A DNA stretch of 64,000 nucleotides, from assembly GCA_965222605.1 (NCBI GenBank), contig OZ244960.1, forward strand, positions 32,001-96,000, read 5' to 3'. Positions 1 to 21,018 of the stretch are shown piece by piece. Both the position numbers and the translations under genes were made by a program. Origin of the DNA: Candidatus Latescibacterota bacterium (GTDB lineage: Bacteria > Latescibacterota > UBA2968). The notes below the pieces were generated by a model, which worked only from the letters and a program-made list of their open reading frames with translations, was not told the origin of the DNA and ran no database searches. Each line of letters opens with the position of its first letter. Position 1 is the first letter of the stretch.

Positions 1-3000
1 AACTACGAGGATGAATTTGTAGAGATACTGAATACCGGATTGGATACTATTCCGATCGGTGGGTGGCAGTTGTCAGACCGAGACTCAGATAATCCTTTCA
101 CTTTTCCCGAAAACACACGGATTGCTCCAGGTGAATACATAGTTCTTTTTGGCGGCGGAACGCCGAACGGCTTTGGAGGCCAAGTCTTCGTCGATGACGG
201 CAAGATAGGTAAGCGAGGATTGAGCAATTCGGGAGATGTGGTATTTTTGATCAATCCCACTTTGAGCGATACCATTGCCAGAGCAGAATGGGGGAAAGAG
301 GGAGGAAAGGATCAATCTCTGGTGCGGTATCCGGAAGGGACTGGCAGGTGGGTATTGCACAGCGATTCACCGGGCAGGGGGCTGTTTTCGCCGGGCAAAC
401 CACGGTCGCTTTTCGATATACTCCAGTCTTTTCCCGAATATCTGGACATGATAGAAGGAGAATCCGTTTCGCTGATACCCGCGATTTATAAAGATGGAGT
501 ACCAATGCAGCTTGAGGATGAGGTTTTATGGGTGTCGTGGGATACCACTATCGTGCGAATTGAACAGGGCAACAAGGTGGTTGCTGTGCGTGCTGGTGAA
601 ACGGAGGTCGGATTTTTCTGGAGAGGTCGGGAGAGTCTTCACACATATCTGCGGGTGTTGGAAAAGGAAAAACCGACATTGGTGATCTCGGAGGTGCATC
701 CCAATCCCGCCTGGGGTGAAGCAGGTGATACCAATCGCGATAGTGTGCGGCACACCTATCAGGATGAGTTTGTCGAGATAGCGAATCTGGGCGAGAATCC
801 CATCGACATTGGCGGCTATTTTCTCGGCGATGACGATGCCTCAGCAGATCGCCTATTTCGATTTCCCGATAACACAGTGCTCGATACGCAAGCGGTCGTA
901 GTGCTCTTTGGTGGCGGAGAAGTGGCAGTTACCGAGCGCGTTTTTGTCGATGATGGTCGCATTGGCGATGGCCTGTCCAATGTGGGCGATACCGTGCAGT
1001 TATTGGCGCCCGACAGCAGCACAGTGGTCGCCTCAATGGTATATGAACGCTCGACCAGAGGCGTATCTTATGCCAGAGATGAAGACGGCAATTATCTGTT
1101 ACACAATCAGATATACGAAGATGAGCCTACCTCAGTCGGACGTTTAAAGCCTGGTGATGATCCGATTGAGTCCGAAGGATTGACCGAGGCATTGACTGTC
1201 CCGGATGGACTGGTATTTTCCGAAATCCTGATGTTGCCCGAACAGGTGGATGCCAATAACGATGGGGTTGTGGATCGGCATGCAGATGCTTTTGTCGAAT
1301 TGACCAATATCAGTGCAGATACGCTCGACTTGAGTGGGTGGCTACTCGGCGATGACGATATCGTTGTCTCTCAGTTTTTCTCTTTTCCCGATAATGTCGT
1401 ACTTCTGCCCGGTGGTTATGTCACCATTTTTGGCGGGGGGACGCCCGTGGGTATCCCCGGCACTGTCTTGTCCGCCGAGGGGCAGATTGGAAATGGACTC
1501 AGTAGCGGTGGCGATGTCGTCCACCTGATCATGCCCGATAGCAAGACCGTGGCGCGGTCTGTGCGCGTACCAAAAGCTACCCCAGACATTTCATGGCTAT
1601 TTTCGCCCGATGATCCTCCAGAGTTACATCCCAAAATCCCCGGCTGGCACGCGATGTCGCCCGGCACATCACCGGATGGACAAGAGGCGGCAAGAGCAGA
1701 TTTCATAGATACAGCTGGCAGAGATACACTTGACATTTTTCAACCTCCCAAAGACCTGGTGATCTCTGAAGTCTATCCCAATCCGGCCACAGGCGACGCA
1801 GGTGATACCAACGGCGATGGGGTGCGGCACACCTATCAGGATGAATTTGTCGAGATAGCAAATTTGGGCGAGCATCCCATCGATATTGGCGGCTATTACC
1901 TCGGTGATGACGATGTACCTATGGAAAAACTTTTCCGATTCCCCGACAATACGATGCTCAATCCTCAAATGGTCGCAGTGCTCTTTGGAGGTGGGGAAGT
2001 AAAAGAATCCGATCAGATCTTTGCAGATGACGGTCGCATTGGCGATGGCCTGTCCAATGGAGGCGATACCGTGCAGCTACTGGCACCCGATGGAAGCACA
2101 GTGATCTCCAGAATGACGTATGAAAACGCGCCTCAAGGCATATCTCTTGCAAGAGACGATAACGGCAATTACCTGTTACACAATCAGATATACGAAGGAA
2201 GATCTATCTCAGTCGGACGTTTAGGGCATAGCGATGATGTGATTGAACGATTAACTGCCCCCAATGGCCTGGTATTTTCCGAAATTCTGATGCTGCCCGA
2301 ACAGGTGGATGCCAATAACGATGGGGTTGTGGATCGACATGCAGATGCTTTTGTCGAATTGACTAATACCGGCGCAGATACGCTCGACCTGAGCGGCTGG
2401 ATGCTCGGCGATGACGATATTGTCGTCTCTCAATTTTTTCCTTTTCCCGATGACGTCGTGCTCGTACCCGGTGGTTATGTCACCATTTTTGGCGGAGGGA
2501 CGCCTGTGAGTATCCCCGGTACTGTCTTGTCTGCTGAGGGTCAGATTGGCAATGGACTCAGTAGCGGTGGAGATGTTGTCCATCTGATCCTGCCCGATGG
2601 TAAGACTGTAGCGCGGTCTGTGCGCTTACCAAAAGCCACACCAGATGTTTCATGGCTGTTGTCGCCTGATGCCCCTCCAGAGTTACATCCCCAAATTCCA
2701 GGCCGGCACGCGATGTCACCCGGCACACCACCTGTTTCGGAAGTGGAACCAGATACCCTGAACGGTGTGAACTATGAAAATGTCGTATCGGGAAAACCCA
2801 TTGTTTTTGATGGTGAAGACCAGACGGTTAATAGTCCTATATCTGACGATTCAAAACCCAGTGATCTGGAAACAGATTGGGGCATTTACCCGTCACCTAA
2901 CCCTTTCAATACTGCAACTGTGTTAGGTTTTTACACTACAGGAGGTCCTGTTTATGTGACTATATATAATATCCTGGGACAACCCATCAGACGGTTGGTT

Positions 3001-3144
3001 CAACAACATTTGCCAGCCGGATATTATCGGCGTATATGGGATGGTAAAAATGACTCGGGAGCATCTGTGGGATCTGGAATCTATATAGTCCTACTAAAAG
3101 ACAAGGAAGCGATATTTACAAATCGCGTTGCGCTCTTAAAGTGA
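1..3144 (+). CDS. Secreted lamin-tail-domain (LTD) repeat protein with an Ig-like (BIG2) domain and C-terminal FlgD-Ig/T9SS-like sorting domain; 5'-truncated by the window edge
   Basis: Frame is open from base 1 (NYEDEFVEILN...). At least five LTD-type motifs (ISEV.PNP...DEFVEI.N....IDIGG..L.D) and a C-terminus PSPNPFN...IYNILGQ.IR.L...WDGKNDSG..VGSGIYIV.L...LLK. Confidence 0.8.
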   Translation, partial: NYEDEFVEILNTGLDTIPIGGWQLSDRDSDNPFTFPENTRIAPGEYIVLFGGGTPNGFGGQVFVDDGKIGKRGLSNSGDVVFLINPTLSDTIARAEWGKEGGKDQSLVRYPEGTGRWVLHSDSPGRGLFSPGKPRSLFDILQSFPEYLDMIEGESVSLIPAIYKDGVPMQLEDEVLWVSWDTTIVRIEQGNKVVAVRAGETEVGFFWRGRESLHTYLRVLEKEKPTLVISEVHPNPAWGEAGDTNRDSVRHTYQDEFVEIANLGENPIDIGGYFLGDDDASADRLFRFPDNTVLDTQAVVVLFGGGEVAVTERVFVDDGRIGDGLSNVGDTVQLLAPDSSTVVASMVYERSTRGVSYARDEDGNYLLHNQIYEDEPTSVGRLKPGDDPIESEGLTEALTVPDGLVFSEILMLPEQVDANNDGVVDRHADAFVELTNISADTLDLSGWLLGDDDIVVSQFFSFPDNVVLLPGGYVTIFGGGTPVGIPGTVLSAEGQIGNGLSSGGDVVHLIMPDSKTVARSVRVPKATPDISWLFSPDDPPELHPKIPGWHAMSPGTSPDGQEAARADFIDTAGRDTLDIFQPPKDLVISEVYPNPATGDAGDTNGDGVRHTYQDEFVEIANLGEHPIDIGGYYLGDDDVPMEKLFRFPDNTMLNPQMVAVLFGGGEVKESDQIFADDGRIGDGLSNGGDTVQLLAPDGSTVISRMTYENAPQGISLARDDNGNYLLHNQIYEGRSISVGRLGHSDDVIERLTAPNGLVFSEILMLPEQVDANNDGVVDRHADAFVELTNTGADTLDLSGWMLGDDDIVVSQFFPFPDDVVLVPGGYVTIFGGGTPVSIPGTVLSAEGQIGNGLSSGGDVVHLILPDGKTVARSVRLPKATPDVSWLLSPDAPPELHPQIPGRHAMSPGTPPVSEVEPDTLNGVNYENVVSGKPIVFDGEDQTVNSPISDDSKPSDLETDWGIYPSPNPFNTATVLGFYTTGGPVYVTIYNILGQPIRRLVQQHLPAGYYRRIWDGKNDSGASVGSGIYIVLLKDKEAIFTNRVALLK
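677..2730 (+). repeat. ~1 kb internal tandem duplication of two-LTD units (~677-1670 and ~1755-2730)
   Basis: Near-identical DNA blocks, e.g. cacacctatcaggatga and gatgccaataacgatggggttgtggatcg, occur in both halves; boundaries are approximate. Confidence 0.85.
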
Positions 3145-5128: not shown

Positions 5129-6022
5129 ATGGTCATTCGCATTTCAAACCTGACAAAAGTATATCGCCGTGGCGCAGTTCCCGCCTTAGACGATGTCACC
5201 TTGAGGATCCCACACGGAACATTTGGTTTGTTGGGGCCCAATGGTGCAGGTAAAACAACGCTGATTAAAATTTTATCAACTCAGATGGACGCATCGAGTG
5301 GTAGCGTGACCATGGATGAGTTCGATCTGGTAAAAGACCGCACAGAGATTCGCCGGCGTCTGGGATATTTGCCCCAGCATTTTGGGACCTATCCCCAATT
5401 GACGGCCTGGGAATTTCTCGATTATATGGCTGTTTTGGGCGGCATACACAATAGAAGAGTGCGTCTGAATCGCGTAGAGCAAGCTCTAAACGAAGTCGGT
5501 TTATACGAAGCGCGCAATCGGCGCTCGGGCACTTTTTCCGGTGGCATGATGCGCCGCCTTGGCATTGCACAGGCCATTCTGGCCGATCCAGAGTTTCTCA
5601 TTGTCGATGAACCCACCGTGGGACTTGACCCGGAAGAACGCATCCGATTCCGGAGTATTTTGGGACGCTTGAGTAGTGATCGCGCAATTTTGATCTCCAC
5701 GCATATAGTGGGCGATATTTCGAGCACCTGTGAAGATCTCGCGGTTTTGGATACAGGACAACTGATCTTTCGCGGTTCTCCCGCAGAACTCATTTCAAAA
5801 GCCGATGGAAAAACGTGGGAAGTACAGGTCAATGATGCTGGCTTTGAAATGCTGTCGCGGGTGTTTCGCGTGGTCACAGTAAATGTTGAAGGCGATCAGA
5901 TGCGTTTGCGTATGGTAGGAGATGGCGAGCCACCCGCTGATGCCGAAGCGATCGCACCTAACCTCGAAGATGCCTATGTCTATTTCGTCGGAGGCGATAC
6001 CACGGGCGAAATCGCAGCGTAA
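5129..6022 (+). CDS. ABC transporter ATP-binding protein (ABC-2 exporter type)
   Basis: Walker A GPNGAGKT, Q-loop YLPQ, signature FSGGM, Walker B LIVDEP, H-loop STH. Confidence 0.95.
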   Translation: MVIRISNLTKVYRRGAVPALDDVTLRIPHGTFGLLGPNGAGKTTLIKILSTQMDASSGSVTMDEFDLVKDRTEIRRRLGYLPQHFGTYPQLTAWEFLDYMAVLGGIHNRRVRLNRVEQALNEVGLYEARNRRSGTFSGGMMRRLGIAQAILADPEFLIVDEPTVGLDPEERIRFRSILGRLSSDRAILISTHIVGDISSTCEDLAVLDTGQLIFRGSPAELISKADGKTWEVQVNDAGFEMLSRVFRVVTVNVEGDQMRLRMVGDGEPPADAEAIAPNLEDAYVYFVGGDTTGEIAA

Positions 6023-9495: not shown

Positions 9496-10569
9496 ATGGA
9501 TGTGAAATTTGATTTTTGTCCAAAAATATTTTTGGTAATGGTCCTTTGTGGGCTGGTCGCCTGTGAGCGGCAAGCGGAACAGCGCACAGTTGATCTGACG
9601 GTTCCCGTTACTGTTCAATCTGTGGAGACGGGAACAATCGAATCCATTGTGACGGCTACCGGAACCCTCAGACCAGTGCGCGTGGCCCAGATCACAACGG
9701 AAATTCGCGGAAGTCTGTACTGGAGCAAAGGGAGCAACAACCGCTTGCTCGCCAAGGGGTCGGAGGTTAAAAAGGGGCAAACCATAGCGAAAGTCGACAG
9801 TGATGAATGGGTTGTCGGCGCGCGGGTGGAAGCGCGTAAACTGGCGGTTGAGACAACCAGGCGAACGCTAGAGGAGCAAGAAACCCTGTTTAGCCGACAA
9901 TTGGCAACGGAAATGAACGTTGAAAATGCGCGCAAAGCATGGGCCGATGCAGAAGCCAACTACCAGGATGCCCTCATCAAGATCGATAAAACCAGGCTTA
10001 TAGCCCCCATTCATGGCGTCATGTCGGAACTTGCGGATATTACGCAGGGAACGCTGGTGACTCCAAATACCACAATCGCAAAAATTATGGATTATTCACA
10101 GTTATATGTCGATCTGAAAATTCCAAATGCCCAGATTATTAACGTGAAATTGGATCAGGGCATCCGCGTGAGCAATTACGCTTTGCCCGAAGAAATTTTT
10201 GAGGGCGAAATAGTCGAGATGGATCCCGCCATCGATCCGGTCACGCGCACGGTTCAGGTCGTTGGGTTGGTCGATAATCCCGACTTGCTTTTGCGAGCGG
10301 GTATGTTTGTCAAAACAGAAATAGTCACGGAATCGCGGCAAAATGTCGTACTTATTGCGCGCAATCTCGTTTTGCGGCGGCGAAATCAGAAGGTCGTTTT
10401 TGTCGAAGAAGAAGGCCGCGCACAACAGCGAGAAGTCGAAACCGGCCTGGAAGACCGAGATCGCGTGGAAATTGTGGTTGGACTTGAACCGGGAGAACAA
10501 TTGATCACGAGCAATTACGAAACACTGAGGCCGCGGACTCGAGTGCGGGTCACGGGAGATAGACGATGA
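9496..10569 (+). CDS. RND efflux periplasmic adaptor (membrane fusion protein), probable lipoprotein
   Basis: LVAC lipobox-like motif; TGTL.P, APIHG, DP.IDPVTRT, L.AGMF, VETG, GL.PGEQLIT motifs; exact start uncertain. Confidence 0.92.
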   Translation: MDVKFDFCPKIFLVMVLCGLVACERQAEQRTVDLTVPVTVQSVETGTIESIVTATGTLRPVRVAQITTEIRGSLYWSKGSNNRLLAKGSEVKKGQTIAKVDSDEWVVGARVEARKLAVETTRRTLEEQETLFSRQLATEMNVENARKAWADAEANYQDALIKIDKTRLIAPIHGVMSELADITQGTLVTPNTTIAKIMDYSQLYVDLKIPNAQIINVKLDQGIRVSNYALPEEIFEGEIVEMDPAIDPVTRTVQVVGLVDNPDLLLRAGMFVKTEIVTESRQNVVLIARNLVLRRRNQKVVFVEEEGRAQQREVETGLEDRDRVEIVVGLEPGEQLITSNYETLRPRTRVRVTGDRR

Positions 10570-13500
10570 ATTTGCCGGAATTTTCAACGCGATATCCCGT
10601 GACAATTGCCATGGCGACCCTCGCGGTGGTATTGCTCGGCTGGATATCACTGGACGGTTTGGGAACCGATCTCTTGCCCGATTTGCAGACGCCTGTCGTC
10701 ACCATAGACCTAACAGCACCGGGCAAATCGCCCATCGAGATCGAAGAAATCTACACGCGCAGACTCGAACGCGATGTGAGCACCATTAAGGGCGTCAAGC
10801 GCGTATATTCGATTACCCGCTCGGGACAAGCCGTGGTCATTGCGGAATTTGCCTGGGATGCGGACATGGATTATGGGTTGCTCGACGTGCAAAAAAAAGT
10901 GGGGCGCTATGCGGCAAATGAAGATGTATCGCAGTTGGATGTGACGCGCGAAGACCCGCTCGCGCTCGCGGTGATGCGAATAGCGATTACGGCAGACAAA
11001 AATACAGAACTCGACGCACTAATGGGTACGGTAGAATTGCTGATCAAACCGAAATTGGAAGCCCTCGAAGGCGTGGCATCTGCCGAGGTGGAAGGGGGGA
11101 CAGAAAAGGAAGTGCGCGTTTCGCTAGATCCCTATTTGCTCGAAGCGTTTGGACTTTCACCCGATGCAGTCATCAACCGCATCGCGCAAGCGAATGCCGA
11201 TGTATCCGGAGGCACACTCAGAGAAAATCAGCAGTCGTATCTGGTCAAAGCCCTCGGTCGCTTAAATGACATAAACGATGTACGAGAAGTCATTGTGGGA
11301 GAAAAGCGTGGGGGAGGGGGCGCGGTTTCTGGAGACCGCGTGCCGGTGCGCGTGCGCGACGTGGGCACGGTTGATCTGGAATATCAAGAGCGAGAAACCA
11401 TTGTACGCCTCAATGGACACGAATGCGTTGGCCTCGCCATTTACAAAGAAGCCGGCAGCAATACAGTCGCTGTGGTCAACACGGTATTGGATGCAATAGA
11501 CGACCTCGAAGCAGATTTGAGCGGCATGCAGTTCACAACTGTCGAAAATCAGGCGCGATTTGTCGAAGATGCCATAGGCGAAGTCGAAACATCTGCTATA
11601 CATGGGGCATTTTTGGCGATTCTCGTGCTTTTGCTCGCGTTGCGGAGTTGGACGGTGACGCTGGTGATTGGGTTGGCGATTCCCATTTCCGTATTGGCGA
11701 CGTTCACGCTCATGTACTTTGAGGACCTGACCCTGAATATTATGACGCTGGGCGGGTTGGCGCTGGGCGCGGGTATGCTCGTTGACAATGCCATTGTAGT
11801 TATTGAGAATATTTATCGGCATCTGGAAAGCGGCGAGGATGCGCGCACAGCATCGAGCCGCGGCGCATCTGAAGTCGGCGTGGCAATTCTGGCCTCAACG
11901 TTGACGACCGTGGCTGTTTTTTTGCCCATTGTCTATTTGCAAGGGCTGGCTGGCAAACTCTTTGTGGATCAGGCGTGGACTGTTGCATTTTCGCTGCTGT
12001 CATCGCTGGTTGTGGCAATGACGACGATTCCGATGCTGACGTCGCGCATTTTTAGGCGGTTGAATACCACGCGCCACATGACCATTCGGTCGGACAAATA
12101 CTATCGGTTTCTCAATAGTATTTTGAATCACAAACCCATCCTGCTCGTCGTCGTGCTGCTGATTCTTGGCGGAACGGGATATATCGCCCGCGAGTTGCAG
12201 ACCGAATTTATCCCGCGCGAAGATCAGGGGCTGTTTCAAATTGACCTCACACTATCCGAAGGCTCGCGTGTAGAACTAAGCGATCGGGTCGCCCTGCACG
12301 CCAAAGAGATCGTCGAAAGCGTTGGGGGGGACGATGTGGCGCATGTGTACGCGCTGGTCGGCCTCAATCCCGCCCGGGTATCGAGCGGAGGCGAACCGAC
12401 GGGTCCCAATCGCGCGACTCTATCGGTGGCTTTAGAGACACAGCGATCGCGCAGTGTCAGCGAATTGGTGCGCGATCTGGATCCCATTTTGAGTGCTATG
12501 CACGATATTGAGGTGAAATACAAGCTGCACGAAACCGCGCTCGAAGGCGTGATGGGGGGGCAAGAAGCACCCATTCAGGTCGAAGTGTCTGGGGAAAATC
12601 TCGATATTTTGGCGCGTATCACAAAAGAACTTCAGGTGAGGATCGAGGACCTGCCTTCGGTGTACAATGTACGCACGAGTTTTCAAGGTGGACAGCCAGA
12701 AGTCGATCTGGCGATTCGCGATGAAGTGGCATCGGCTTTTGGACTGACCACGCAGACCATCAGCCGCACATTGGAAAGACAACTGTCGGGTGAAGTTGCC
12801 GGCGAACTGTCTAAAGACCAGCGCACGAGAGATATCCGCGTGAAATATCGAGATGTCGATCTGCGCGAACTCCGCACCATGCAAATCGAGGGATCAGATG
12901 GCGCAATCCTGACATTGGGGGATATTGCCGATCTCAATATTATTGAAGGTCCCCGCGAAATTTTGAGAGAAAATCAGCGGCGCGTGGGGCGCATTACGGG
13001 ATATCTCACAGAAGGGCGCATTTTAAGTGAATCCATTGCCGACATACGCGCCACCATACAGGCTATGGCCGTGCCGTCGGGGTACCGCATTGAAATTGGC
13101 GGGGAAGAGCGCGAGCGCGCAGCGTCATTTGAAAGTCTCAAATTCGCACTCCTGCTTTCAATTGTGCTGGTCTATATGGTTATGGCATCGCTATTTGAAT
13201 CCACGCTCCATCCGTTCACCGTGATGTTTTCCGTTCCTTTAGCTGGCGTCGGTGTGGTGTTCGGATTCTATCTTTTGGGCGAACCGCTCAGTGTAATGGC
13301 CTATATCGGCATTATTATGCTGGGCGGTATTGCGGTCAACGATGCGATCGTGCTCGTGGATCGCATCAACCAACTCAGGCAAGCTGGCATGGCGTTGCGA
13401 GAAGCGGTCCTCCAGGGCGGGCAGGACCGCTTGCGCCCCATTATGATGACGAGTGCGACGACCATTCTCGCTCTGCTGCCCATGGCAATCGGCTTTGGCG

Positions 13501-13631
13501 AGGGGGCAAAATTGCGCGCGCCTATGGCTATTGCCGTCATTGCCGGTCTGGTGACATCTACATTGATGACCTTACTCGTGATACCTACCCTGTATGAACT
13601 GATTGATCGACTTCGGGGGAAATCCGCGTGA
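10566..13631 (+). CDS. RND efflux permease (AcrB/AcrD/AcrF family)
   Basis: 1021 aa; [50 protein letters not shown] overlap with the MFP gene. Confidence 0.95.
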   Translation: [1021 protein letters not shown]

Positions 13632-16600
13632 CACTTGCTGGTATTGCCGTTCGGCGGCCCGTGACCACGGCCATGTTTTTTATTGGTCTGGCTATTTTGG
13701 GTGCGATTTCACTGGATCGATTGCCCGTTCAGATATTTCCAGAACTCGTTCGCCCAGAAGTCTTTATTACGCTCAATCAGCAGGGCTATTCGCCCGAACA
13801 GGTCGAGCGAGATCTGGTGATGCCCGTCGAGAGGGAAGTGGGTAAACTCGAAGGTATTGAGGCGTATGAGTCCTTTTCGCGCCAGAACAATGGCGGGGTA
13901 CGCATTTCCTACGCACCCAATACGGATATGAAATTCGCATTGCTGCAGCTCGAGAGCCGCATCACGCGCCTGCAACCGCTTTTGCCCGAAAGAACGCGGG
14001 TCAATGTACAGCGCTTTGATTCTTCTGACTTGAGTGCCTCAGTGATGCAAATTCACGTGTTGGGCGAGGGTGATATAAACTGGTTGCGTGAATTTGCCGA
14101 GGAGAAAATCAGGCCGGAATTAGAAGCGGTCGATGGCGTTGTCAACGCGCAAGTCCTGGGCGGACAAAGAACAGCTATTGAAATTATTGTCGATCCATTG
14201 ATGCTACAAGCACACCAGCTTTCGATGTCTGATATTCGCAATCGCATCAATGCGTTTAATACACGGCGACAATATCTCGGGCGGGTGTATGACGGCAATC
14301 AGACCTATGCGGTCAGCATTCAGGGCCAATTTACAGATCTCGTGCAAATCCGCAGGGTCGTAATCAAGCCGGAATTGCCCCTGCACCTTGGCGACATTGC
14401 CGAAATCCGCTACGGTCTTCAGGAGCGCACGGACCTGCAACGCATCAATGGCAAAGCCGCCGTTGGCATTCGCATTCAAAAAGACGACGAAGCCAATCTG
14501 ATCGACATTGCAGAGATACTCGAAGACACCATCGAACGCATAAATCGCGATCTCGTCTATGAAAATATTCAGCTCGTGATCAGCCAGAACCAGGCAGAGA
14601 TTATGAACGAAGCCCTCAATATCCTCAAACGGGCCGCTGTTGTCGGGGGATTGCTCGGGCTTTTTGTTTTGTTCTTGTTTTTGAGAAATCTGCGCTTTGT
14701 CGCTGTTTTGCTCCTCGCCATTCCGTGTTCTTTGCTGCTCACATTTAATCTGATGTATATGTGGAATCTCAGTTTGAATGTGCTCTCGATGTGCGGCCTC
14801 GCGCTTGCAATTGGTATGTTGACGGACAATGGCATTGTGGTCATGGAAAATATCTTCAAGCATTTTGAACAGGGCAAATCCCCCAAAGAAGCCGCAAAAG
14901 CCGGAACCGATGAGGTCGCACGCGCCGTTGTTGCGGCAACAGCGACTACGATTACGGTTTTTTTACCCGTAGTTTTTATTCAAAGCGACTTTCAGGATAT
15001 CCTGCGAGAACTCGCGCTGTCTATGACATTTCCGCTGCTTGCCTCTCTTCTCGTTGCTCTTACACTCGTGCCTGCCCTCGCATCAAAAACCCTCTCCCTC
15101 GCATCCAGGCCGCCAACAGAAACAGGCACGTTGATTGAGATGTACACAGTGTGTCTCAAAGCGGGCTTGCGCCACAGAATCAGCGTGTCGCTGGGTATTG
15201 TCGGCGCGCTTGTCGTCACGTTGATTATTTCTTTTTTCTTTATGCTGCAACAAGATATTCGCCGAGAAGAAAGCCGTTTCACCGTCTATATCAGCATGCC
15301 CGAAGGCACGACCATTGAAGCCCTCGATGCTGTTGTTGGCGAAATTGAAAGTGCTGTGCGAGGACTCAAAGGTGTGGATCGCTTTACGACCAGTATTAGC
15401 GAAATCCAGGCGAGTATAAATGTAGAGCTTTTGCCCTTATCCGAACGCCCCGATCAGATTTCTGTCGATCTCATCAAAGAGAATCTCGAGGAGTCATTCG
15501 CCGATGTCCAAGACGCGATTGTGAGCTATGAGGCCATCGCGCGCACGGGTAGGGGAGGTGGTGGTGGACGCGGAGGTGGGGGGAGGGGGATTCGGGGCGC
15601 CGGTCAGGCCTCTGGCGGATTCAATCTGGAAGGGGGGACACCTTCGGAAATGGCTGTGATTCGCGGCTACGATTTTACAGTGCTTCAAATGCTGGCCGAC
15701 GATCTGGTCTATCGCCTCGAAGAATTGGAGGAAATCGATCCCAATAGCGTGCGAGCCGATGCAGAACGCGGCGCGTCTGAAGTGCATGTTTTGCCCGATG
15801 AAGAAGTGATGTTTGATCGGCGATTGCAGGTTCGTCAGGTGCTCAATGCCGTATCCGACGCCAATCCGCGCGGAGCGCGGTCCAATATTGCATTTCTCAC
15901 ACCCGAAGGCACTGAAATCCCGATTGATATTCGCAATGTTGAAGATCCCGAAGAAGAGGGGGAAGGCATTGCGGGGTTGAGACAGACGCCGATTCTGGGT
16001 GCGGGGGGGACGTACATTCCCCTTGTGGAAGTTTCGCATGTGCGCCGAGATCAGGGCAGAAGCATGATTTTGCGCACCGATCAATCGCGGCGCGTGATTG
16101 TGTCCTATAATTTCGGCGACGAAATTTTGCAATCTCAACCTCTGCTGGAAGCCTCCCGCGCTTATGTGCAAGACGTAGTCTCCGAAATGGTGCTGCCCGA
16201 AGGGTATAGCATCGAAATGATCGAGGCAGAGGAAGAGACGATTTATTACTGGATGATCGGCATTGCCGCGTTGCTCATTTTTATGATTTTGGCCTCTTTG
16301 TTTGAATCGCTTTCCGCGCCTTTGATTATTCTGTGTACGTTGCCCACAGCAATTATTGGATCGTGCTGGGCACTGGTCTTATCGGGTACGGGATTGACCC
16401 AACAAGAAGGGCCAATGGCACTGTTGGGATTTATTATTTTGGGCGGTATTGCCGTCAACAACGGGATCGTGCTGATTGACGCGATTGAAACCCTTCGCCG
16501 CCGCCGCGGGTTCAGGCGAGAACGCGCAGTGCTTGCGGCGAGCCGGTCGCGCGTGCGTCCCATTTTAATGACTTCGGCGACCACCATTTTGGGCGTGTTG

Positions 16601-18352
16601 CCTCTGGCACTCAAGTTTGGCGGCGATTACGAAATTTGGCCGCCCTTTGCGATTACACTACTGGGAGGGCTGGCAGTTTCAATGGTTTCTACTCTCGTAT
16701 TTATCCCCGTGGTGTACATGGGAATTGACCAGACCAAAGCCTGGCTGGCGGATATTGGCTGGTTCGGGATTGTATTGGGGACGGCAGCGGCAGCGGGATT
16801 GACGTATTGGGTTGACGATTATTACCAGAGTTTGTTCTGGACCTGTCTTCTGGCATTGCCGGCGTGGATGGTGTGTATGGGCGCGGTCTGGATTGTGCAG
16901 CGCATTTATCGCTCGCGTATGGCTTCTCGCGTTGAGATCGGCAGGGTCGATCATCTCGAAATTCGCAATCTGACAAAAATTTACGGCGCGCCGGGGCAGT
17001 TTAAGCGAGAATGGGATCGTTTTAAGCGGCGCAATCAGCGCCTTTCAGAGCGCGGACAGGTAATGGTAGATAAAAAGGCGATTCAGGACAGTTTGTGGTG
17101 GAAGTTGCCTCTTCTGGCTCTGCTACTTTATTTGGAAACCTATTTTGAACAGGGAACATGGATCTTTTTAACAGGGCTCGCCCTGTGGGGCCTCGTGCAT
17201 CATCTCGTGCTATGCACGGCTGCTTTGCGCGGTTTCCAGATTGAGAACCGATGGATATTGCAAATCGCCCGATTGATTTTGCCGCTGGTCTTTGTGGCCT
17301 TTGTTCATTGGCGTTTGGAACTTCTGTCTTTGACCATAGCCACTTGTGCAATTTACTTGCTCTATCGCATTATCGGATTTTTGGCAGATCGCGTTGCACG
17401 AGGCCGCGTTGATCCCGAACATATACCGGGGCGGTTAGGACCTGTTAAAGGTATTGTGTATCGCGGTGCTGCAGCCGTTCCCATCATTGGTGTTCCCCGC
17501 CCGCAATTCCAGGCCCTCGGCGGCGTGAGTCTCGATATTCCGCGCGGGATGTTTGGGCTTTTAGGCCCCAATGGCGCGGGCAAAACCACGCTGATGCGGA
17601 TTGTGTGTCGGGTTTTGTCGTCAAATTACGGATCAGTGCTCGCCAATGGCAAAACGCCGCTCACCCATCGGAATATGCAGGGGGTGATTGGATATTTGCC
17701 GCAGCACTTTGGCCTGTATTTGCACATGTCTGCGTATAATTATCTGGAATACCGCGCGCTTTTGGAGGGATTTAAGGACGGGGTAGCACGGCGCAAGCGC
17801 GTTCAGGAATGTCTGGAGCAGGTCAATCTGTGGGACAGGCGCGACGACCCGATTGGTTCGTTCTCTGGCGGTATGAAACAACGCGTGGGCATTGCACAAA
17901 CCCTGTTGCACTTACCACAGATTATTGTGGTGGATGAGCCAACAGCGGGATTGGATCCACTCGAGCGGATCCGGTTTAGAAATTTACTGGCGCGATTTAG
18001 CCAGGAAAAAATCATTATTTTTTCCACGCATATTGTCGAAGATATTGCGGGCAGTTGCAACCGATTGGCCGTGCTGAATCACGGCAAGGTGCTCTATACG
18101 GGAACCCCACTTGAAATGCGCGATTTGGCGCGCGATAAGGTGTGGGAAGCCCTGCTACCAGATCCGCGTTTTGAAGCGTTGGAACGCGACCTGGATATGA
18201 TTACACATGTGCGCGTGCCCGATGGGATTCGGGTGCGATTTCTCGCAACCGATCCCATCCCAGAAGCGCGTGTAGTTGATCCCACCCTCGAAGATGCATA
18301 CCTCTATCTTTTGCGACATGGCGATGAATACAAACAGGCTAACATGGCGTGA
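13628..18352 (+). CDS. RND permease fused to extra TM helices and a complete ABC ATPase domain
   Basis: aa 1-~1035 RND ([34 protein letters not shown]). The C-terminus has [27 protein letters not shown] and STH in the same uninterrupted frame. Confidence 0.9.
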   Translation: [1574 protein letters not shown]

Positions 18353-19052
18353 GTTGTTTTTCTTTGTCGGGAAATTGCACAGCCTGAGCATGAGAATCGT
18401 TTTTCACCGCAAAATGATTTTTATGTTCGGCGGAATTGTGGCGTATTACGCAATTTTGTACGCGATCGCAATCTGGCGTCCCGGTGAGGGGTTTTCAGTC
18501 GAGCAAGCCCTCCATGTATTGGTCGAAGTGCCAGGCACGGTGCTTGCGATCTATCTAACGATGGATCTGGTGTCCGGGGAGAGAGATAAGGATACGCTTG
18601 AAATTTTGTTCAGTACGGCTATCAGCCACTACGCGACATGGTCCGTGAGAATTGTGTCGATCTGTGCTGCGCTATTTGCCACGCTGATGGTGATGAGCAC
18701 GATTTCCTACTATTTTTTTGCAGAGTTTCCCTATCTCCTGGGCGGATTGAATGCCTGTATCCCTGCCTTTTTTATGGTGGGGGCCACATTTCTATTTTCG
18801 GTATTGTGTCGCAGTGGCAATGCGGCCGGCATGCTCGCTGTTGGGCTTTTGATTGCGGTTTTGCTTTCGACCGAGACGTTTGAGGATACATCGTATTACC
18901 TTTTTCTCAAACCATTTGACGCGCCTTCAGATTTAGATACCAGCTTGTGGATAAATCGCGTGGTGTTAAACCGCGCGGGCATTGCCATTCTGGGTATATT
19001 GTTCATTTTTCTGGCTCTGAGACGAATGATAGAGCGCGAAAAGCTGCTGTAA
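18318..19052 (+). CDS. ABC-2 type permease
   Basis: ~6 TM; ERDKDTLEILFS motif typical of ABC-2 permeases; start 18318 or 18324. Confidence 0.8.
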   Translation: MAMNTNRLTWRELFFFVGKLHSLSMRIVFHRKMIFMFGGIVAYYAILYAIAIWRPGEGFSVEQALHVLVEVPGTVLAIYLTMDLVSGERDKDTLEILFSTAISHYATWSVRIVSICAALFATLMVMSTISYYFFAEFPYLLGGLNACIPAFFMVGATFLFSVLCRSGNAAGMLAVGLLIAVLLSTETFEDTSYYLFLKPFDAPSDLDTSLWINRVVLNRAGIAILGILFIFLALRRMIEREKLL

Positions 19053-20161: not shown

Positions 20162-20776
20162 TTATGGCTCCGCCATTTCCTCTGCGCCCGTGTGTGCAAG
20201 TCCAAGAGCCTGTTCATATAACAGATCTGACAGCCGTTGATTCTCTTCACGCATTTTCTGAATCGTTTTTACGCTTCTCTGAGCGCTTATTTCCACTTCT
20301 TTTTGTTGTCTGCGCAGCCAATTTGCGTCTTCTTGCGCTTGATTTCCCCTTTTTTTTGTCTCATGCAGTTCTTCTCGTGTTCTTTCAAGTTCTTCTTTTA
20401 ACGCCCGCGCTTCCGTCCATCCAGACGCAGATGATGCCTCTAATTGTGCATTCCGTTCGTTCAGGTTGCGAATTTCCGTTCTCAGTTCTCTTTCGGCTAT
20501 TTCGATCATCGCCAATTTTCCCAGTTTCTGTTGTTGGACTTCAAATTCGGATTTTTCAACGAGAATTTGATCGGGATTATAGCTCACATCAATATGATTT
20601 TCTCCCAAATTTTTTCCAAATTTTTTCCAAAATAATTCCTCAATTTCTTTTCTAGATATTCGCCATGTTCCATTCCATTTTTCAGGCTTTAAAAAACCTC
20701 TATTAATATAGTTTCTTATTGTTTTATCAGTCACTTGAAGAATTTTAGCGGCTTCGAGAATTCCATAATTTTCCAT
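20162..20776 (-). CDS. Helix-turn-helix (MerR/excisionase-like) plus coiled-coil protein
   Basis: YGILEAAKILQVTDKTIRNYINRG.L.....NG.WRI then ~120 aa E/R/K/Q-rich heptad region; SD aaagga. Confidence 0.8.
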   Translation of the reverse strand: MENYGILEAAKILQVTDKTIRNYINRGFLKPEKWNGTWRISRKEIEELFWKKFGKNLGENHIDVSYNPDQILVEKSEFEVQQQKLGKLAMIEIAERELRTEIRNLNERNAQLEASSASGWTEARALKEELERTREELHETKKRGNQAQEDANWLRRQQKEVEISAQRSVKTIQKMREENQRLSDLLYEQALGLAHTGAEEMAEP

Positions 20777-21018
20777 TTTCTATTCCTTTCTTGAAATTCC
20801 ACTATATTTACAATAAATTTCCGTTATATTAGCACTTTTTTTCCATATTGTCAAGTGGTAAAAAAGAGAAAAAAAACGCGCAGATAATGAATTTTTGTTA
20901 TTTTTGGAAGAGAGACGCATTTTACACTGATAAAAAATAAACGCCCCTAAAAAACAACAGGAGCTGAATATTTCCCAAAAAAACGAGAAATAGAGAACAA
21001 AAAGAGAGGAGAAAATAG

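Follow-up and report, generated by a model that had tools for sequence, protein, structure and literature searches.

A conserved RND permease–ABC ATPase fusion whose nucleotide-binding domain is split by a predicted four-helix membrane insert

Can an ATP-binding cassette (ABC) ATPase be interrupted within its first beta hairpin by a bundle of membrane helices and still make a complete nucleotide-binding domain (NBD), and what would such an ATPase drive? The question is raised by a gene in a 64,000-nucleotide stretch of Candidatus Latescibacterota bacterium (assembly GCA_965222605.1, contig OZ244960.1, positions 32,001–96,000 of the forward strand), called the window here and numbered from its first base. 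The open reading frame at 13628–18352 on the plus strand encodes a 1574-residue fusion that consists of a resistance-nodulation-division (RND) permease, two transmembrane (TM) helices, the first strand of an ABC ATPase (β1), an insert and the rest of the ATPase. Its GTG start codon overlaps the stop codon of an upstream RND gene.

Both halves of the fusion are recognized by Pfam. ACR_tran (PF00873) matches residues 5–1033 over profile positions 3–1020 of 1021 (E 1.4e-178, 596 bits), and ABC_tran matches residues 1299–1440 (E 4e-26, 92.7 bits against a cutoff of 25). The part of the NBD from β2 onward contains Walker A, the Q-loop, an SGG signature, Walker B with the catalytic Glu1437, and the H-switch. 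As read from both translation and DNA, the ten-residue β1 segment comprises residues 1110–1119 (nucleotides 16955–16984) and ends with the A-loop tyrosine, Tyr1119 (codon 16982–16984), whereas the β2 segment begins at Ala1296 (nucleotide 17513), shortly before the Walker A motif GPNGAGKT (17564–17587). The two are separated by 176 residues that include four TM helices; the NBD is hence not contiguous, and in sequence the A-loop tyrosine sits 193 residues before Walker A. This bears out a first-pass annotation of the window, which had proposed an ABC fold split by about 175 residues after its first strand. That annotation also took the loop to be normally a few residues long. A free ATPase paralogue encoded in the window, 43% identical to the fused NBD over the NBD, indeed has six residues at the same β1–β2 position; the loop is, however, also a known site of extension, as with the Wzt gate helix and the CFTR NBD1 insertion in passages of PMC6379404 and PMC2217481.

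A word-indexed search with residues 1040–1574 scored 7999 candidates of 865–2755 residues, 4641 of them with E ≤ 1e-3; among the best 120 of these matches, 111 exceed 1400 residues and each carries both the RND and the ABC Pfam domains. An AlphaFold2 model of residues 1030–1574 was built on a 106-row alignment of the query piece and 105 of the 111 homologues, leaving out the near-duplicates P0103, P0104, P0110, P0112 and P0113 and the 1455-residue P0111. The model has a mean predicted local distance difference test (pLDDT) score of 91.0 and a predicted template modelling (pTM) score of 0.80. In its own numbering it runs through two helices (2–37 and 40–72), a strand (80–90), six helices (95–112, 120–143, 147–171, 179–201, 204–228 and 242–253) and two strands (265–276 and 278–283), which correspond to β2 and β3 and lead into the usual NBD.

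Foldseek retrieved ABC NBDs with this model, and VIA-align superposed it on solved NBDs with Z of 26–28, pairing the start of each solved chain with model residues 76–81, mostly 77–80. Among these NBDs are LptB (4p33_A; Z 26.8, root-mean-square deviation 2.2, 229 of 235 residues superposed over model 79..535), MJ0796 (1l2t_A; Z 25.9, 216 of 230 aligned, model 80..466) and TM_1403 (4yer_A; Z 28.0). Because the ranges start at β1 against the first residues of solved NBDs, β1 occupies its canonical place in the sheet of the model with the insert skipped, and the predicted NBD is whole in three dimensions though split in sequence. The N-terminal antiparallel β subdomain of the fold is likewise present in the AlphaFold2 model only. 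A control fold of residues 1030–1300, which omits the NBD, retains the six helices (pLDDT 88.4, pTM 0.63), but residues 80–90 are no longer a strand and the blocks there drop to pLDDT 54–69. The prediction thus agrees with the expectation of the first-pass annotation that β1 completes the NBD sheet, and the segment takes its strand form only in the model that includes the NBD.

The topology is consistent with this arrangement. Kyte-Doolittle hydropathy gives two segments before β1 (residues 1040–1058 and 1072–1090, about nucleotides 16745–16897), and two such linker peaks, TM13 and TM14, occur in 109 of 112 sequences. Within the insert, the same scale and the alignment-averaged profile give four segments, at about residues 1156–1173, 1178–1200, 1209–1228 and 1232–1253, matching four helices of the model. 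The two linking helices and the four hydrophobic insert segments noticed earlier are therefore recovered by hydropathy and by structure prediction alike. RND permeases end in the cytoplasm. Lysine and arginine residues number 17 in residues 1091–1155 and seven in residues 1254–1295, the two long cytoplasmic stretches, with 0, 0 and 1 in the predicted outer loops and two in the short inner loop between insert helices b and c. From this distribution and the even number of insert helices, four in the model, both NBD parts are placed in the cytoplasm, which fits a path in which two helices return the chain for β1 and four more return it for β2.

The split is also kept in the homologues, as the alignment that the first-pass annotation had called for makes plain. 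Every one of the 112 full-length proteins (the query and the 111 homologues of more than 1400 residues) has a β1 motif, [ILVM]x[ILVMF]xxL[TV]KxY, placed 195–290 residues ahead of Walker A. K1117, W1158 and P1285 are invariant in all 106 aligned sequences, and at the A-loop 104 of them have Tyr and two have Phe. Walker A, the Q-loop, SGG, Walker B (VVDEP) and the H-switch (STH) are each kept in 106 of 106, the sole variation within the catalytic motifs being the last Walker A residue, which is Thr in 105 and Ser in one. In the amphipathic helix that opens the insert, W1129 is conserved in 105, R1134 in 103 and R1135 in 98 of the 106; W1178 of insert helix b is conserved in 103, and around the return helix G1268, Y1278 and the invariant P1285 are found in 103, 101 and 106 sequences. 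The best-conserved residues of the insert (YGAPG, W1129, R1134, R1135, G1268, Y1278 and P1285) are cytoplasmic and juxtamembrane, not in the TM helices.

The fusion occurs in several phyla. Source names among the best 120 matches include Gemmatimonadota, Latescibacterota, Acidobacteriota, KSB1 and Calditrichota. A HMMER search with residues 1100–1300 alone against 1.84 billion cluster representatives, run with no filter, gave 44 matches, which are fusions of ~1550–1590 residues or short pieces. The organism's own genome, a single 6.34-Mb contig, has one match. Across the phylum, 83 of 168 genomes match, including 33 of the 52 high-quality ones and 20 of 20 other genomes of the same genus, and 42 of 301 sampled genomes match in the Bacteroidales-type order that holds the metagenome-assembled genome (MAG) L002. 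No stop codons interrupt the matches, many of the matching genomes are single-contig, and the open frames are mostly ~1550–1600 residues, some being longer and a few cut by contig ends. A profile scan of genome contigs with the patterns GLLGPNGAG and VVDEPTAGL adds little on distribution, since the patterns are generic and, among the matches listed, L002 and L003 cover the whole query, L004 covers part of it and the other 77 loci are ordinary free ATPases. Because the frame is conserved, usually present once per genome, open throughout and found in several phyla, the protein is a natural, conserved chimera and an evolved architecture rather than a read-through, as the first-pass annotation had argued from the orderliness of the insert.

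Neither the HMMER search of 1.84 billion representatives nor a search for shorter proteins gave a convincing unfused form of the TM-NBD part. The 526-residue P0152, which has a Met start, was considered and rejected, as its contig has 2433 bases and a 1567-residue protein belongs to the same cluster; P0124 was set aside in the same way, its cluster having a 1570-residue member. Sixteen shorter proteins that we inspected begin at varied internal points (within TM12, within TM13, ahead of β1 or in the insert), and for this reason we take the shorter database proteins to be broken or cut gene calls.

By sequence, the nearest class of the fused NBD is ABC-2/ABCA (DrrA/GldA-like), as a neighbour rather than an equivalog. 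The nearest NCBIfam models are GldA (TIGR03522; 170.6 bits against a cutoff of 402.6) and DrrA (TIGR01188; 154.3 against 312.45), and both matches start at residues 1293–1295, missing β1. The closest solved NBD sequences among the 26 PDB matches listed are those of the lipid transporters ABCA4, ABCA7, ABCA1 and ABCA3 (E 7e-46 to 3e-39), followed by TM_1403, TM0544, NosF, OpuCA and LptB. For the RND part, the best PDB sequence match is MdtB (9lyq_B, E 9.5e-72), and the HAE-1-like NCBIfam model NF033617 scores 483 bits, below its cutoff of 1250.

Aligned to MdtB, the fused RND reads TDN against VDD in TM4, both RNDs of the locus having Asp-Asn where MdtB has Asp-Asp, and VNN against KKN in TM10. 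We take the canonical proton-relay residues to be Asp-Asp in TM4 and Lys in TM10 (AcrB numbering); the fused RND departs from both, and RNDs of this clade seem to have a non-canonical proton relay. TM10 is VNN in 23 of 23 fused copies (L002, L003, L111–L130 and the window), whereas in the partner RND encoded upstream it is VND in 21 of 23 and VNN in two Bacteroidales loci; the TM10 motifs of the two RNDs in the window are at 13326 and 16445. A charged TM10 residue found in most partner RNDs is thus absent from the fused one. Separately, an Arg/Gly-rich low-complexity stretch occupies residues 638–662 (window 15539–15613) of the fused RND, in what is presumably its periplasmic portion; RGG-like tracts are unusual for periplasmic domains, and the poly-Gly stretch of this RND is also present in the family consensus.

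What might the fused ATPase drive? We compared the gene cassette by tblastn of its proteins in 22 related loci, 20 chosen across families of the phylum together with two Bacteroidales MAGs, L002 and L003. Every one of the 22 has, ahead of the fusion, genes for a periplasmic adaptor (membrane fusion protein, MFP) and the partner RND and, directly after it, a gene for a small six-TM ABC-2 permease. A complex prediction for fusion residues 1030–1574 and the small permease scored 0.59, against 0.00 for the best of three controls, which the tool rates as weak support; at least 90% of contacts are shared between runs, and the pLDDT of the permease is at least 75. The conserved downstream position of the permease and the weak support of the complex prediction make it more likely that the ATPase drives the small permease. 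The earlier suggestion that the bundle could relay ATP-driven motion to the RND is not supported as stated.

On balance we favour, with some reserve, the reading that the protein is a split-NBD chimera in which a membrane-embedded β1–β2 loop pins an active NBD beside the RND, and that the NBD drives the downstream ABC-2 permease. The insert would be an enlarged β1–β2 loop of the Wzt-gate-helix kind, with a basic interfacial helix followed by four membrane helices. The six extra helices would keep the NBD flat on the inner surface of the membrane alongside the RND, which would be a tethered neighbour, while the NBD powers the six-TM permease encoded just downstream; the free paralogous ATPase and a giant ABC-2 protein of the cassette possibly join in. 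Together they would make an ABC-2 exporter that is docked, through a covalent link, on a pump of two RND paralogues, MFP and perhaps outer membrane factor (OMF). At the inner membrane, ATP would be spent on extracting or flipping a substrate that is probably lipid-like, and its onward passage across the envelope would fall to the RND pump; inner-membrane pumps can cooperate with tripartite pumps. In Wzt, according to passages of PMC6379404, the gate helix lies at the water-lipid interface, is electropositive and shifts ~8 Å toward the channel on ATP binding, and the Tyr that precedes it stacks on adenine. Since the insert sits in this mobile loop, it would be suited as an anchor and as a lever between ATP binding and the membrane helices.

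More tentatively, and with the balance in our view tilted against it, the cassette could build a covalently tethered dual-energy exporter, with one lipid-like substrate handled first by an ABC-2 flippase and then by an RND heterotrimer. ATP would serve the inner leaflet, and the proton-motive force the expulsion via MFP and OMF; the four-helix bundle would be a mechanical link that takes the ATP-dependent motion of the β1–β2 loop into the membrane, both to the permease and to the neighbouring RND protomer, in whose TM10 the Asp usual in its partner is absent. At an RND stoichiometry of 2:1, two fusion protomers per trimer would supply exactly one NBD dimer.

Several points weigh against the split-NBD chimera that drives the small permease. 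Only 75 of 112 sequences give four insert peaks by per-sequence hydropathy, the others giving three (16), five (18, the query included) or two (3); this count is too crude to fix the number of helices, the query itself yielding five. The pairing of β1 with β2 and the position of the bundle on the membrane-facing side of the NBD are inferred from secondary structure, superposition ranges and pTM. Of the solved complexes used to calibrate the complex tool, 58 of 80 attain its mark, as do 2 of 110 mismatched pairs, but scores of at most 0.60 among these belong to only seven of the 80 solved complexes and to both passing mismatches, so that the score obtained here is weak by the tool's own calibration; it may also owe something to likeness with solved NBD-permease complexes. 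The part of the free ATPase in the cassette is left in doubt by genome G091 of the same genus (locus L127), where its orthologue (83% identity) lies 1.35 Mb away at C1:3064330–3065214 and a 464-residue open reading frame replaces it upstream of the giant protein. Finally, RND pumps are trimers whereas NBDs act as dimers, a mismatch in stoichiometry.

The same trimer-dimer mismatch burdens the alternative of an ATP-driven RND, in which NBDs would dimerise and drive or gate the RND protomer through the bundle and TM13–14, with ATP replacing or supplementing the proton-motive force. In its favour are the covalent tether and the membrane bundle between RND TM12 and the NBD, and the lack of the charged TM10 residue in the fused copy (VNN in all 23 against VND in 21 of 23 partners) fits it as well. 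We nevertheless think it unlikely: a dedicated ABC-2 permease, scoring as a weak binder, follows the fusion gene in all 22 loci, the TM4 Asp is retained in both RNDs, and the VNN/VND difference is not general, because the Bacteroidales partners are also VNN. We know of no RND that uses ATP. The separate permease downstream also speaks against an interleaved half-transporter, in which TM13–14 and the four insert helices would form a six-helix ABC transmembrane domain with β1 in its TM2–TM3 loop. Six is the number of helices in an ABC-2 permease, and β1 with the basic helix does stand at the place of the TM2–TM3 cytoplasmic loop, but a TM-only model searched against 48,161 PDB representatives reached at best Z 8.6 (MrpF, 82 residues; the sole chain to reach Z 8), which is within the noise range for helical bundles and neither assigns a known fold nor rules one out, with no ABC permease in the 50 rows listed. 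Comparison by hhalign of the fusion alignment with that of the small ABC-2 permease gave a probability of 0.3%, which lends no support to an origin of the insert from such a permease, and the loops between helices in the insert are just 3–8 residues. These results lean against a half-transporter, which we consider improbable. In the ESM Atlas, the best scores for the insert were 0.86, to hypothetical proteins of 28–47 residues, too low to count as more than a lead.

Slightly less probable again is a scaffold or regulator, in which NBD and bundle would serve assembly, localisation or ATP-dependent gating and not energise transport. The better conservation of the cytoplasmic juxtamembrane parts of the insert than of its TM helices is what one would see at an interaction surface, but catalytic motifs kept in 106 of 106 sequences would be unusual for a purely structural or degenerate NBD. 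Least credible of all, to the point that we give it almost no weight, is an artefact in which a read-through, frameshift or misassembly joined two genes and the β1 match arose by chance. Its only support is that shorter database proteins exist, and these stand on short contigs or have varied internal starts, with full-length members in the clusters of P0152 and P0124 (1567 and 1570 residues). Read-through or misassembly is ruled out because the same uninterrupted frame recurs in 83 of the phylum's genomes and in 42 from another order, many of them single-contig. Table 1 sets the elements of the fusion beside the neighbouring genes.

Table 1. Elements of the fusion gene and its cassette, in window coordinates. 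AF2, AlphaFold2 model of residues 1030–1574 in its own numbering (H, helix; E, strand).
Feature	Position	Strand	Basis
Free ABC ATPase paralogue with ordinary 6-residue β1–β2 connection	5129..6022	+	Translation; Pfam; NCBIfam
Giant ABC-2-type membrane protein, 1149 residues	6035..9484	+	Pfam; hydropathy; motif scan
Periplasmic adaptor (MFP)	9496..10569	+	Pfam HlyD_D23; NCBIfam RND_mfp, 192.7 bits against cutoff 94.9
Partner RND permease, 1021 residues	10566..13631	+	Pfam ACR_tran, E 3e-231
Fusion: RND (AcrB/MdtB-like) permease domain, residues 1–1033, 12 TM helices	13628..16726	+	Pfam ACR_tran
Fusion: extra TM helix 13, hydrophobic core residues 1040–1058, model helix 1031–1066	16745..16801	+	Hydropathy; AF2 H2–37, block pLDDT 80–97
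Fusion: extra TM helix 14, core about residues 1068–1090, model helix 1069–1101	16829..16897	+	Hydropathy; AF2 H40–72
Fusion: predicted NBD strand β1, residues 1109–1119, ending in A-loop Tyr1119	16952..16984	+	AF2 E80–90; VIA-align; motif
Fusion: start of insert, predicted basic amphipathic cytoplasmic helix, residues 1124–1141	16997..17050	+	AF2 H95–112
Fusion: predicted insert TM helix a, residues 1149–1172	17072..17143	+	AF2 H120–143; alignment-averaged hydropathy
Fusion: predicted insert TM helix b, residues 1176–1200	17153..17227	+	AF2 H147–171; hydropathy
Fusion: predicted insert TM helix c, residues 1208–1230	17249..17317	+	AF2 H179–201; hydropathy
Fusion: predicted insert TM helix d, residues 1233–1257	17324..17398	+	AF2 H204–228; hydropathy
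Fusion: short conserved cytoplasmic return helix before β2, residues 1271–1282	17438..17473	+	AF2 H242–253
Fusion: NBD from β2 on, plus C-terminal domain	17507..18349	+	Pfam ABC_tran; motifs; fold Z 26–28
Small 6-TM ABC-2-type permease, 244 residues counting from Met at 18318; gene overlaps the 3′ end of the fusion gene	18318..19052	+	Six hydropathy peaks; weak Pfam ABC2_membrane_2

The cassette is an operon-like run of overlapping or abutting genes, in the order free ATPase, giant ABC-2 protein, MFP, RND, fusion and small permease. The partner RND and the RND domain of the fusion share 30% identity (BLASTP). The giant ABC-2 protein is found in 20 of the 22 loci, the exceptions being L002, which has no match, and L126, which begins at a contig end, and the free ATPase is adjacent in 18; L002, L003 and L126 either stop or have a different upstream part, and L127 has the gene elsewhere. 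An OMF gene precedes the MFP gene in all four distant loci checked (L002, L003, L122 and L118). The giant protein has six N-terminal TM segments, an M1-peptidase-like region with a weak Peptidase_M1 match (E 2e-3) and a C-terminal Golvesin_C domain. A motif scan of the M1-like region found neither HEXXH nor GxMEN, and for that reason this part is probably not catalytic. Two Arg/Gly-rich stretches, similar to that in the fused RND, occur in the giant protein at residues ~703–728 and ~1115–1149.

Further out in the window, positions 40–3144 encode a 1034-residue protein with a C-terminal type A sorting domain of the type IX secretion system, which fits an organism of the Fibrobacteres-Chlorobi-Bacteroidetes group that has type IX secretion. 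At 20500–20999, between a tetratricopeptide repeat gene and gcvT, the GC content drops sharply to 0.30 from about 0.50 around it.

Full-text literature searches brought up no publication that describes either an RND fused to an ABC protein or a membrane insert within an NBD, some of them yielding general reviews of efflux only, though other papers may exist. The passages of a tripartite-pump review (PMC8277102) located by text search name MdtBC heterotrimers and nothing closer. Databases carry these proteins as 'efflux RND transporter permease subunit', as 'ATP-binding cassette domain-containing protein' or under names that give both AcrB and an ABC ATPase subunit. Because domain models start at β2, the first strand and the A-loop have been overlooked in annotation. 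Known, then, are β1–β2 extensions of ABC NBDs and tripartite pumps with paired RNDs; new, as far as these searches show, is the fusion of an RND to an NBD split by four predicted TM helices.

Efflux is usually described as energised either by an RND pump or by an ABC pump, and here the two are joined in one polypeptide within a cassette that is kept across distant bacteria. The locus may offer a natural system for studying how inner-membrane exporters pass substrates to tripartite pumps. It also suggests that an ABC ATPase can house a whole membrane bundle in its first hairpin with its catalytic motifs intact, which would widen the range of architectures in the superfamily, and it points to the β1–β2 loop, where Wzt has its gate helix and CFTR its regulatory insertion, as perhaps a general output lever of NBDs.

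How does the fusion compare with known systems? Wzt and TarH, as far as the passages of PMC6379404 describe them, come closest in the position of the extension: it lies at the same β1–β2 connection, follows the adenine-stacking Tyr and reaches the membrane interface, and the Wzt helix is electropositive much as the insert here opens with a basic amphipathic helix. The Wzt extension is, however, one short interfacial helix with no RND fusion, whereas here ~175 residues form four predicted TM helices. Wzt is not among the 50 VIA-align rows or the 26 PDB sequence matches listed, so the resemblance is one of position and not of demonstrated kinship, though a kinship may exist. The regulatory insertion of CFTR NBD1, ~30 residues (404–435) between strands 1 and 2 in the passages of PMC2217481, occupies the same site and indicates that the site tolerates insertions, but it is soluble, mobile, phosphorylated, eukaryotic and about one sixth as long.

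On the side of the pump, MdtABC and MuxABC share with this locus two adjacent RND paralogues and one MFP, the OMF being encoded here in the distant loci. MdtBC heterotrimers are named in the passages of PMC8277102; Mdt proteins have no ABC domain, the fusion scores far below the NCBIfam MdtB and MdtC cutoffs, and MdtB has Asp-Asp in TM4 and Lys in TM10 where the fused RND has Asp-Asn and Asn-Asn. DrrAB, GldAFG, NosDFY and ABCA1/4/7 resemble the fusion in the sequence class of their NBD, and a separate six-TM ABC-2 permease gene adjoins the NBD here; in those systems, however, the NBD is free or follows its own transmembrane domain, and the β1–β2 hairpin is unbroken. MacAB-TolC likewise spans the envelope with an ABC ATPase, an MFP and an OMF, and the MacB NBD superposes on our model (5lj6, Z 26.3), but MacB is itself the inner-membrane pump and has no RND, whereas here the ABC part is attached to a full RND pair.

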